Source: Candidatus Bathyarchaeota archaeon | GTDB taxonomy: Archaea; Thermoproteota; Bathyarchaeia; 40CM-2-53-6 | Assembly: GCA_963726255.1 (NCBI GenBank) | Contig: CAVSBL010000002.1 | Span: forward strand, 1,440,001 to 1,504,000 | Length of the DNA: 64,000 nucleotides | Direction: 5' to 3' | Shown: piece after piece, positions 4,198-19,292 of the stretch | How the letters are laid out: each line of letters opens with the position of its first letter | Position numbering within the stretch: the stretch's first letter is position 1 | The notes under the pieces: generated by a model | Told to the model about the DNA's origin: nothing | Database searches by the model: none | What the model saw: the letters and a program-made list of their open reading frames with translations, nothing else | Position numbers and translations under genes: made by a program

Positions 4198-4650
4198 ATG
4201 CCAATCAATGAGGGCACGAAAGCACCCGATTTCACCCTGAAAGATCAAAATGGCAAGCGGGTAAGGCTTCGCGATTTCCGGGGGAAGAAGGTTGTTCTAT
4301 ATTTCTATGTTCGCGATGACACGCCCGGATGTACTAAAGAAGCGTGCAGCTTCCGCGACGGCCTTGCAAGATTGAAAGATGTTCCGGTGCTCGGCATTAG
4401 CCCGGACCCGGTTGACTCACACAAACATTTCGCAGACAAGTACGGCCTCCCGTTTACTTTGCTCTCTGACGAGAAAGCCAGGGTCGCCAAGAAGTTCGGT
4501 GTTTGGGGTAAGAAGAACATGTACGGTAGAACCTACTATGGAGTCATACGCTCAACTTTCATCATCGATGAATCCGGTACCATCAAACAAGAATACAAAC
4601 GTGTGAAGGTAGATGGCCATTTAAGCCAAATTATCAAGAATTTACGGTGA
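4198..4650 (+). CDS. bcp: Peroxiredoxin, BCP/PrxQ family
   Basis: TPGCTKEACSFRD motif. Start placed at MPINEG. Confidence 0.92.
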   Translation: MPINEGTKAPDFTLKDQNGKRVRLRDFRGKKVVLYFYVRDDTPGCTKEACSFRDGLARLKDVPVLGISPDPVDSHKHFADKYGLPFTLLSDEKARVAKKFGVWGKKNMYGRTYYGVIRSTFIIDESGTIKQEYKRVKVDGHLSQIIKNLR

Positions 4651-5144
4651 GGGCAACAACCCCTAGCTGGTCAGATCCTGTGGTAAACTTGGACGTTGCA
4701 TACGTCCCAACACCCAAGGACCTCGTTCGCAAAATGCTGAGGGTGGCAGGCGTGCGTCGGGGTGAGACCGTTTTCGACCTTGGGGCCGGGGACGGGCGCA
4801 TACTGATCGCGGCCGTGAGGGGGTTTGGGGCACGAGCCATAGGCGTCGAGATGGACCCGGAACGACTGGCCCGAATACAAGAACGATTAACTGCGACGGG
4901 CACAGAGGCAACAGTGCTTGCAGGAGATTTAATGCGGGTCGACCTGTCCACTGCAGACGTGGTCACGATTTACCTTTCAGAATCGGTGAACACCAAGCTG
5001 GCCGAAAAGCTGAGGAACGAACTCAAACCTGGGGCGCGGATAGTTTCACTAGACTACGTCCTCCCGGGATGGACCTCGGAACGAGACTTGACCGTCGGGA
5101 GCGGGGGTATCACACGCAAGTTATACTTGTACAGGGCTCAATGA
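4647..5144 (+). CDS. Class I SAM-dependent methyltransferase (protein-lysine MTase-like)
   Basis: YVPTP...DLGAGDGR motif I. GTGA overlap with bcp. Confidence 0.85.
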   Translation: MRATTPSWSDPVVNLDVAYVPTPKDLVRKMLRVAGVRRGETVFDLGAGDGRILIAAVRGFGARAIGVEMDPERLARIQERLTATGTEATVLAGDLMRVDLSTADVVTIYLSESVNTKLAEKLRNELKPGARIVSLDYVLPGWTSERDLTVGSGGITRKLYLYRAQ

Positions 5145-5281
5145 TCCGACTGCGCTACGCGCGGAATTACACTGCCAGAGAAAAAGGGCAAAATCAACCT
5201 CTTTTGACTCCGAAAAACACCCCGCCCCCCCAGGGGTACCTCCAACCGTGCGCGCACCGCTGAATCCAGAGATTTTGATGT

Positions 5282-5480
5282 TGGTCCCGCGGGCCGGAGT
5301 TTCATAGGGTTTGGCCCTATTTTGAATTCGCCGGACCGCGAATAGTCCTCCAGCGACACTCCGGTTTCCGTTGTTAGCCTAGTAGGCTGACATGGGCACG
5401 CCTTGGGCGCACACCTACAGCGTCTCCGTCACTCCGTATAAGAGGGACTCGGAAGCTCTACCAGGCTGAGCTACCGCGGG
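5282..5480 (-). tRNA. tRNA-Tyr(GUA) with four BHB introns (30/31, 37/38, 53/54, 59/60)
   Basis: Removing 5449-5422 (28 nt), 5414-5366 (49 nt), 5349-5327 (23 nt) and 5320-5299 (22 nt) gives 77-nt CCCGCGGTAGCTCAGCCTGGTAGAGCTTCCGGCTGTAGACCGGAGTGTCGCTGGTTCAAATCCGGCCCGCGGGACCA, with the archaeal Tyr identity elements C1-G72 and A73. Confidence 0.93.
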
Positions 5481-5612
5481 ACCGAGTCAAAGCCTTCGCC
5501 CTGTAGCCTATAAGGTTTCACGAAGTATCTGCCGACCCAGCCATCTTCGTTGTGAGGGAAGCGCCCGCGTTAAATCCTCGGAAACATTGTCCTCGTCCTT
5601 AGGTTAGTTTCA

Positions 5613-6021
5613 ATGACTTTCAAGCGATCTTTCCGTGTTCACTGGGTCGACACCGACATCGCAGGCGTCATGCACTTCAGCAATTTCTTTCGCTACTTCG
5701 AAGCCTGCGAAGAAGAATTTTACCGTTCACTGTCTCTACCTTTAACCGAAATTCGCGAGAACTTTGGCGTGATGTTGCCTCGCGTCGAGGTCCATTGTCA
5801 GTACACGGCTGCGTGCCGATTCGATGAACAAATTGATGTTACGTTGAGAGTTCGCGAAGTCGAAGAGAAGACCATCACTTACAATTTCCAAATATTTCGT
5901 CAATCAGACGGAAAACTCGACGGCCGAAGGCTACGTGAAATGTATCGCAGTAAATTCGGAATGGAAGGCTGTACCGCTGCCCGCTGAAATCGCAAAGACG
6001 GTTCGCAGCAGCATTGGCTAG
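5613..6021 (+). CDS. Acyl-CoA thioesterase (4HBT/YbgC hotdog family), apparent +1 frameshift near 5920
   Basis: DTDIAGVMHFSNFFRYFE motif. The expected C-terminus AEGYVKCIAVNSEWKAVPLP continues in another frame to TAG at 6019-6021. Confidence 0.85.
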
Positions 6022-6794: not shown

Positions 6795-6909
6795 TGGCGG
6801 GCCCGCGGGGATTCGAACCCCGGATCCCAGGCTTTCGCCGCGAACGCTCCGAAGGCTTACACGAATCGGTTCCATCTCTGTGTCTTAATCCTGGCTCGAC
6901 TACGGGCCC
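6795..6909 (-). tRNA. tRNA-Arg(UCG) with two introns (29/30 and 37/38)
   Basis: Removing 6877-6857 (21 nt, central helix ACAC/GTGT) and 6848-6834 (15 nt, relaxed BHB) gives anticodon arm CAGGC-CTTCGGA-GCCTG. CCA is encoded. Confidence 0.9.
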
Positions 6910-11461: not shown

Positions 11462-12025
11462 ATGGAGAACAGCCCCGCGCCCGTTCCTCAAGCCCCTTCA
11501 CAGACACAAGAAAAGCCACTGTTCACTCCCTGGAACGCCGTGTCCGACGGGCGTTTGGTCTACTTACCATACAAATCTGAACTCATGGAGCTACGAGACC
11601 GGGGGTTCGGCGAACTCAGAAAAGACAAGCTTCTCCTGTCTTCATACGAATCCTTCTACCTCCTAGAGAAACAGAAAATTCGCGTTTTCACCAAGAAAAG
11701 CAACCGGGAGTTAGAGCTTCGAGACCTTGTCCGGACATTTTCCGTCGGTAGACCCGAGATCTGGATAAAGTACTTGGTCTACAGGGACCTACGGGACCGT
11801 GGTTACATAGTTCGCGAGTCCACCAGGGCTTTCGATTTTGACATTTACGGAAAAGGGCCGCTAAGGCGATTAATCTCGATCGTATACGAGGGTGGCGAGG
11901 CAAGCCTCAGGAAACTGAGAGGACTACTTCAATATTCTGACAAGGAAAAGAAGGAACTGATACTAGCAGTTGTAGACCGACGCACAGACATAGTCTACTA
12001 TACGTTGAACTCGTTAAAGGTCTAG
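11462..12025 (+). CDS. endA: tRNA-intron (splicing) endonuclease, probable structural (beta) subunit
   Basis: YESFYLLE, YLVYRDLRDRGYIVR and LAVVDRRTDIVYY motifs. No His after the DFDIY motif. Confidence 0.85.
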   Translation: MENSPAPVPQAPSQTQEKPLFTPWNAVSDGRLVYLPYKSELMELRDRGFGELRKDKLLLSSYESFYLLEKQKIRVFTKKSNRELELRDLVRTFSVGRPEIWIKYLVYRDLRDRGYIVRESTRAFDFDIYGKGPLRRLISIVYEGGEASLRKLRGLLQYSDKEKKELILAVVDRRTDIVYYTLNSLKV

Positions 12026-19144: not shown

Positions 19145-19292
19145 TGGCGGGCCCGCGGGGATTTGAACCCCGGACTTCTGCACTGGCCTTCCAGTTCTAC
19201 AGCTTTTTCCGGGTGTTCCTTAGGGGGTTCGGCAACAATCTCCGCCTCTTTAAGCGGAGCCTGCCGCTCTATCCAACCTGAGCTACGGGCCC
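19145..19292 (-). tRNA. tRNA-Arg(CCU) with three introns (30/31, 37/38, 45/46); C at position 33
   Basis: Removing 19260-19228 (33 nt), 19220-19205 (16 nt) and 19196-19176 (21 nt) gives a 78-nt tRNA with A20 and anticodon arm GCAGC-CCCCTAA-GCTGT. Confidence 0.85.

Follow-up and report, generated by a model that had tools for sequence, protein, structure and literature searches.

The locus considered here lies on the minus strand of the window, i.e. the 64,000-nt stretch of a Bathyarchaeia genome that was analysed, and comprises a tRNA-Tyr(GUA) gene of 199 nt that runs from position 5480 (C1) to position 5282 (last A of the encoded CCA). Its ends, read on the minus strand, are CCCGCGG on the 5' side and CCGCGGG-A-CCA on the 3' side, and its parts, together with an element upstream of it, are the following:

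5507-5514, minus strand: TATA-like element CTTATAGG, -34 to -27 relative to tRNA position 1, with an A-rich stretch before it
5450-5480, minus strand: exon 1, 31 nt, tRNA positions 1-30 (5' strand of the acceptor stem, D arm, positions 27-30 of the anticodon stem)
5422-5449, minus strand: intron 1, 28 nt, site 30/31, HBh' type
5415-5421, minus strand: exon 2, 7 nt (GCUGUAG), positions 31-37, containing the anticodon GUA
5366-5414, minus strand: intron 2, 49 nt, canonical 37/38 site
5350-5365, minus strand: exon 3, 16 nt, positions 38-53 (3' strand of the anticodon stem, variable loop, 5' strand of the T stem)
5327-5349, minus strand: intron 3, 23 nt, site 53/54, HBh' type
5321-5326, minus strand: exon 4, 6 nt (UUCAAA), T-loop positions 54-59
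5299-5320, minus strand: intron 4, 22 nt, site 59/60
5282-5298, minus strand: exon 5, 17 nt, positions 60-76 (3' strands of T stem and acceptor stem, A73, encoded CCA)

The gene is flanked by a methyltransferase-like ORF (4647-5144) and a thioesterase-like ORF (5613-5987), and no ORF of at least 90 aa overlaps it. When joined, the five exons yield a 77-nt tRNA-Tyr(gta) with a complete cloverleaf, as called by ARAGORN on the spliced sequence. Direct reading of the joined exons finds the anticodon GUA, the C1-G72 pair and A73, the latter two of which we take to be archaeal Tyr identity elements. The cloverleaf thus bears out the preliminary description of this DNA, which had proposed a tRNA-Tyr(GUA) gene with four introns at 30/31, 37/38, 53/54 and 59/60; the proposed exon lengths (31, 7, 16, 6 and 17 nt, with the T-loop TTCAAA as an exon of its own) agree exactly with the strand-corrected coordinates, and the proposed central helices CTTC/GGAG, CTGT/ACGG, CGCT/GGCG and TTCA/TGAA are all present in BHB register in an intron-aware search. 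As all exons follow one another in order on the same strand within 199 nt, i.e. neither located at separate loci nor arranged in permuted order, a split or permuted tRNA gene is excluded. Group I and group II introns, with their self-splicing ribozyme cores hundreds of nucleotides in length, are excluded as well, the introns being 22-49 nt long and an Rfam match being absent in 5282-5480 at E<=10.

Each intron has a BHB core made up of two 3-nt bulges that flank a central helix of 4 bp, with 4/4 pairs in every case. In this register a run of four exon bases, ending two bases short of the exon's 3' end, pairs with four intron bases that likewise end two bases short of the 3' end of the intron, and both cuts of every intron fall after the second base of a 3-nt bulge. 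The core of intron 1 (CUUC/GGAG) is continued by the inner stem GUC/GAC + CUCU/GGAG, that of intron 2 (CUGU/ACGG) by a 3-bp inner stem and two internal hairpins, that of intron 3 (CGCU/GGCG) by GGACU/GGUCC and that of intron 4 (UUCA/UGAA) by UAGGG/CCCUA, the contiguous inner-stem pairs numbering 3, 3, 5 and 5 bp for introns 1-4. The corresponding outer helices, counted with the upstream intron removed, measure 2, 6, 0 and 5 bp, i.e. at least one flanking helix (h or h') backs the core in each of the four introns. After removal of intron 1, intron 2 attains a full hBHBh' motif, its 6-bp outer helix being the anticodon stem, and intron 4 does so after removal of intron 3, its 5-bp outer helix being the T stem. 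The two T-arm motifs have one base in common, U54, which is located both in the 3' bulge of intron 3 and in the central helix of intron 4. All four sites appear as archaeal intron positions in the non-canonical list of PMC4090602.

The gene is detected neither by ARAGORN at default settings nor by Rfam at the gathering score or at E<=10. The custom intron-aware search is anchored on a 7-bp acceptor stem, U8 and an encoded CCA, proceeds depth-first over BHB-bounded deletions and then scores the resulting cloverleaf (maximum 19). It gives the four-intron parse as the sole strict solution for the region, with the top score of 19, and the iterative BHB search that the preliminary description had put forward as a check has thereby been run and returns the same four introns. 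Genome-wide, the strict search reaches a score of at least 17 at 9 of 4565 acceptor anchors and, in a reversed-genome control, at 0 of 3858, the highest control score being 16; the many solutions at 11-15 in the strict genome-wide run represent the noise level. In the tRNA inventory, a solution at C2:500770-500947 is doubtful, having a 15-nt variable loop.

A relaxed version of the search returns an equal cloverleaf score, 19, for a functional gene that is parsed differently, e.g. with intron 2 resolved into two introns (32 + 17 nt) around a 1-nt exon, which would give five introns in total and A37 instead of G37. Such a parse, however, needs an exon of a single nucleotide and leaves the second of the two introns with an inner stem of 1 bp only, whereas the undivided 49-nt intron has a perfect central helix in 16/16 orthologues and the full anticodon stem as outer helix. 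Moreover, the tRNA-Tyr gene of the relative G035, which contains the 37/38 intron only and matches the Rfam tRNA model with 49 bits, fits this model with a single anticodon-loop insertion, base 37 being left unfixed by the fit. We thus regard a different parse of a functional gene as most improbable, and the five-intron parse with the 1-nt exon was set aside as less parsimonious than the four introns listed above.

Conservation was assessed in an alignment of 16 distinct four-intron tRNA-Tyr genes, in which 5/77 exon columns are variable vs 91/140 intron columns, with a mean pairwise identity of 0.970 for exons and 0.734 for introns. Exon 2 is unchanged in 16/16 orthologues, and exon 1 has two variable columns, namely D-loop position 20 and position 5, the latter being compensated at position 68: the acceptor pair 5:68, which spans all four introns, swaps from CG to GC in five orthologues. 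Cloverleaf pairs that span introns are paired in 100% of 336 cells. Judged from this alignment, the exons are under purifying selection. The BHB structure is paired in 97.2% of 704 cells (slid controls: at most 42%), the central helix of every intron pairs in 16/16 orthologues, and nine intron stem pairs have changes on both sides, a number that 0/500 shuffles reach; these compensatory inner-stem pairs are distributed over intron 1 (four), intron 3 (three) and intron 4 (two). The exon boundaries can also be followed in relatives with fewer introns, as the T arm is present as contiguous DNA (GCTGGTTCAAATCCGGC) in the two-intron genes of L012, L014 and L016, and the 30/31 junction, inspected by eye, is uninterrupted in the same-genus genomes G002, G003, G005, G008 and G009. 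In G035, whose gene has the 37/38 intron only, the other three junctions are contiguous as well. Upstream of the gene, CTTATAGG is kept in 12 of the 15 upstream regions of relatives that were examined (L008, L019 and L020 deviate), with diverged flanks. From its position and conservation we infer that this element is the promoter element of the tRNA-Tyr gene.

RNA libraries comprise 12 runs, each with a small share of the stretch, and contigs of four of them (X1, X2, X3 and X8) were examined. These contigs are relatives' sequences with 90-95% likeness that are unspliced across the tRNA-Tyr gene and may be DNA carry-over, e.g. X1 record 1 over 5274-5522 and X2 record 4 over 5276-5485. One X1 contig extends beyond the TATA-like element on its upstream side, which makes read-through or DNA carry-over likely. 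Only exon 1 is matched by two short X1 records, which then continue in unlike sequence and are uninformative on splicing. The contigs of the four libraries, all of which come from relatives and possibly from DNA, contain no splice joints.

The genome (2.4 Mb in a 5-contig assembly, estimated to be 98.5% complete with a contamination of 9.3%) was searched for a further tRNA-Tyr gene. None is present among the 35 ARAGORN calls obtained for the whole genome with introns allowed, and BLAST of the joined exons finds only the gene's own exons, generic D- and T-arm matches and two 12-nt matches. The latter two, which match the anticodon stem-loop and are located at C2:1469017 and C2:2029220, were rejected as they lie inside coding-like sequence without tRNA context. 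The intron-aware search gives no other GTA solution with a score of at least 16 genome-wide. The earlier expectation that this gene is the sole Tyr decoder therefore holds within the detection limits, with no other candidate found by four methods. The inventory is incomplete (19 genes from 43 candidate loci), so that a very divergent second tRNA-Tyr could exist.

In favour of a decaying tRNA pseudogene full of insertions, with the tyrosine codons read by another, unfound tRNA, stand the RNA contigs without a spliced product, the rejection of the locus by standard finders and the gaps in the inventory. Decay is, however, difficult to reconcile with near-invariant exons next to divergent introns, with compensatory changes both in intron stems and in an acceptor stem whose strands are separated by all four introns, with four central helices that are intact in 16/16 orthologues, with a conserved promoter element and with the failure of four methods to find another Tyr gene, and we attribute a very low probability to it. 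Taken together, these comparisons make it very likely that this Bathyarchaeia genome has in the locus its functional tRNA-Tyr(GUA) gene, beside which there is probably no other. If it is the sole tyrosine decoder, protein synthesis depends on the success of eight cuts by the endonuclease and of four ligations, and the gene would constitute a stringent natural test of the limits of BHB splicing, given its 6-nt and 7-nt exons and its base-sharing motifs.

The tRNA-Tyr gene is not isolated in being interrupted. The relaxed intron-aware search resolves 19 genes with 41 introns and leaves 24 of the 43 candidate loci without a solution, one cause being introns inside the acceptor stem; the resulting value of 2.16 introns per gene is a rough figure from a partial, home-made inventory. 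Among the 19 resolved genes only that for tRNA-Arg(CCG) is intron-free, and an encoded CCA is found in every tRNA inspected. All-against-all BLAST of the 41 introns yields no pair at E<=0.01 and thus gives no indication that introns were recently copied from one gene to another. Four introns are found by this search in the genes for tRNA-Tyr, tRNA-Lys(UUU), tRNA-Pro(GGG) and tRNA-Glu(CUC), and the second of these, at 515-704 on the minus strand of the window, confirms that two different four-intron genes lie within 5 kb, as had been noticed earlier, with the boundary of its last intron being uncertain. Of the introns of the tRNA-Lys(UUU) gene, one is located in the D loop, two are at 30/31 and 37/38, and the last one is close to position 45; the uncertainty about the boundary of this last one stems from the 9-nt variable loop that the parse gives.

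Further tRNA genes are present on the minus strand of the window. A tRNA-Asp(GUC) gene at about 1993-2099 is called intron-free by both ARAGORN and Rfam, with three acceptor-stem mismatches. By eye, a 28-nt BHB intron can be placed at 68/69, in the 3' strand of the acceptor stem, with the central helix CGCC/GGCG and the inner stem AGGAG/CUCCU, which moves the true 3' end, GGGCGCCA, further downstream than called. Rfam additionally recognizes two more intron-containing tRNA genes, at 6798-6909 and 19148-19292, for the first of which the intron-aware search returns no solution. In the whole genome, Rfam places only 17 tRNAs above its cut-off. The quality criterion for metagenome-assembled genomes demands at least 18 tRNAs. 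As standard finders miss the tRNA-Tyr gene, and as Rfam counts 17 tRNAs in a nearly complete genome, quality criteria that rely on tRNA counts would under-rate these organisms.

A DNA search finds the tRNA-Tyr gene in most of 40 relatives, 4 of the 40 yielding none. The four-intron form is present in 12 of them, 10 belonging to the same genus, one to a sister genus (G023) and one to another family (G029); within the genus, the gene of G021 is identical to that in the window and nine further genes have 85-91% identity. An exact-pattern scan for the combination of intron 3, exon 4 and intron 4, which covered one genome per species, gives 27 contigs, 23 of which are titled Bathyarchaeota or Bathyarchaeia. 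Seventeen of these contigs carry a four-intron gene and eight a five-intron gene according to the intron-aware search, a ninth five-intron gene was recognized by eye, and one of the 27 matches is located in a 5'-truncated second tRNA-Tyr copy. With 12 of 40 relatives, 27 species-level genomes and at least three further four-intron genes in the genome itself, the suggestion that four-intron genes are a lineage-wide trait is supported. Across the order the tRNA-Tyr gene has one to five introns, at 9/10, 22/23, 30/31, 37/38, 44/45, 53/54, 57/58 and 59/60, and with orthologues that differ to this extent in a single order, a series is at hand in which gains and losses of introns can be dated.

A real outer helix is missing from introns 1 and 3, which would need an enzyme of broad specificity, a requirement that counts against the model. 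The genome encodes two EndA-family paralogues, each of about 188 aa. The first one, at C2:748 kb, reaches 90.9 bits and passes the cut-off of the endA equivalog (59.6), and the second one is a diverged paralogue within the window:

11462-12025, plus strand: diverged EndA paralogue, 187 aa, PF01974 52.5 bits, PF02778 33.8 bits

The diverged paralogue scores 44.8 bits with TIGR00324, i.e. below the cut-off of 59.6, has weak matches to beta-subunit models and is probably a structural beta-like subunit. Its gene is located 6 kb from the tRNA-Tyr gene, in a stretch that contains several interrupted tRNA genes. The presence of two paralogues, together with their model matches, suggests that the splicing enzyme is an (alpha-beta)2 heterotetramer, a form known to process relaxed motifs at non-canonical positions, and an EndA of this type is associated with non-canonical and multiple introns in PMC4090602. 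One RtcB, with a match of 571 bits, is encoded in the genome.

Based on these components, the TATA-type promoter of the gene would give rise to a precursor of about 200 nt, in which EndA would cut within the two 3-nt bulges of the BHB motif at each of the four introns and the RtcB ligase would join the exons, before RNase P and 3' trimming would release the 77-nt tRNA with its CCA already encoded. Introns 1 and 3 would be removed first, their relaxed HBh' motifs being able to form at once in the primary transcript. Their loss would rebuild the anticodon stem and the T stem, and the rebuilt stems would serve as outer helices that turn introns 2 and 4 into full hBHBh' motifs, to be spliced next. 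In such a stepwise removal the 7-nt and 6-nt mini-exons would remain covalently tethered on one side at each step. That introns 1 and 3 precede introns 2 and 4 is what we infer from the geometry of the motifs.

The gene may also be real and the ordered pathway wrong, i.e. the introns may be removed in no fixed order or simultaneously, with the mini-exons held by base pairing alone, and to this we assign an appreciable likelihood, though short of an even one. Central helix and inner stem of all four introns are possible in the primary transcript, and the three-intron tRNA-Ile of Cyanidioschyzon exhibits several coexisting intermediates, as described in passages of PMC3728597. However, simultaneous cuts on both sides of the 6-nt or the 7-nt exon would free it as an oligonucleotide, introns 2 and 4 obtain their outer helices of 5-6 bp only after introns 1 and 3 have been removed, and U54 is claimed by two motifs at a time. 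Ordered removal of introns 1 and 3 before introns 2 and 4 would avoid the loss of the mini-exons. Folding energies are not in favour of the model and were not counted as support for it, as the minimum free energy (MFE) structure of the precursor (-85.2 kcal/mol) does not contain all four BHBs, those of introns 2 and 3 being absent; with all four BHBs and the acceptor stem enforced, the energy is -51.9 kcal/mol.

The 3' segment of intron 2 (window 5376-5385) has a 10-bp complementarity to D-arm positions 14-22 of exon 1 (window 5458-5467), and this pairing forms in the MFE fold of the precursor. It is paired in 97.3% of 300 cells from 30 orthologues. The pair C17:G changes to U:A in three sequences, an outcome matched by 5/500 shuffles, and the local hairpin that competes with the pairing shows unpaired cells at this same pair in four sequences. 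Intron 2 has no Rfam match, and no C/D box motifs are recognizable by eye. By its pairing with the D arm, its 3' segment may act as a built-in chaperone or tether that would keep the fragmented precursor in one piece until the T loop is rebuilt.

Multi-intron tRNA genes as such are already known from archaea, and what is new is a four-intron tRNA-Tyr gene in a lineage for which we found no published report of four-intron or otherwise multi-intron tRNA genes, supplementary intron tables aside. The passages on archaeal tRNA genes in the tRNAscan-SE 2.0 paper of 2021 state up to three introns (PMC8450103), and Pyrobaculum calidifontis, a member of the Thermoproteales, is listed with 71 introns in 46 tRNA genes (PMC8450103, PMC4090602). 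Similar to the present case, these sources describe for the Thermoproteales closely spaced introns, one of which is removed before the BHB of the next one forms, and a two-subunit EndA. The maximum in the passages on this order is three introns per gene, whereas the Bathyarchaeia tRNA-Tyr gene has four here and five in relatives and, in contrast to the Thermoproteales genes described there, contains two introns that enclose a 6-nt exon within the T loop. Thus, the intron load of a single archaeal tRNA gene exceeds the published "up to three" (PMC8450103) outside the Asgard archaea.

Among Asgard archaea, 92-95% of the tRNA genes in soil genomes contain introns (PMC11291895), and an October 2026 preprint gives up to five intervening sequences in one tRNA gene, with about 2.2 per gene (10.64898/2026.10.13.758758). 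According to passages of these two sources the soil Asgard lineages Atabeyarchaeia and Freyarchaeia resemble the present genome in that most tRNA genes are interrupted and many non-canonical introns are missed by standard annotators. The Asgard archaea belong to a different phylum, however, and their value of about 2.2 per gene compares with the 41 introns in 19 resolved genes here; the main-text passages of the preprint contain 0 mentions of Bathyarchaeia, supplementary tables aside. Four introns outside the Asgard archaea imply that heavy tRNA interruption either originated or was retained in one further major lineage at least.

In Cyanidioschyzon, a single tRNA likewise has BHB-type introns in several of its arms, the T loop among the sites, and ordered removal has been demonstrated experimentally, the outer introns being removed before that at 37/38 (PMC3728597). 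This organism is a eukaryote, however, and the tRNAs described in the passages of that paper have three introns, as opposed to four here, and no 6-nt exon. The split and tri-split tRNAs of Nanoarchaeum equitans and Caldivirga maquilingensis rely on the same BHB cut-and-join chemistry, with breaks e.g. at 30/31 and 37/38 (PMC4090602), but their pieces originate from separate loci and are joined in trans, unlike the colinear exons of the Bathyarchaeia gene. A more far-reaching proposal, which we put forward as a rather unlikely one in its entirety, would be that soil and wetland Bathyarchaeia represent a third, as yet undescribed archaeal lineage with hyper-interrupted tRNA genes, i.e. with roughly two or more introns per gene, with an essential tRNA-Tyr gene in single copy that has one to five introns at no fewer than eight positions within one order and with mini-exons of 6-7 nt that would force a splicing order, intron 2 possibly being a chaperone.

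The relatives' tRNA-Tyr genes exhibit two further peculiarities. Five-intron tRNA-Tyr(GUA) genes, found in the Bathyarchaeia L025, L029, L031, L034, L038, L040, L046 and L047 and, by eye, in L036 and L052, have their fifth intron at 9/10, with a length of 22-29 nt, the central helix GCGG/CCGU and an inner stem of 4-5 bp, and in these genes the leader just upstream duplicates the 5' strand of the acceptor stem, so that TCCCGCGG occurs twice in tandem. In L013, L015 and L028, a 5'-truncated second Tyr copy is located about 1.1 kb downstream of a three-intron Tyr gene. This copy lacks exon 1 but has exons 2-5 and the three introns between them, i.e. introns 2-4; it may be a pseudogene or, alternatively, represent the 3' half of a split tRNA. 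In its intron 2 it is similar to a second Tyr-gene type, found in G002, G003, G005, G008 and G009.
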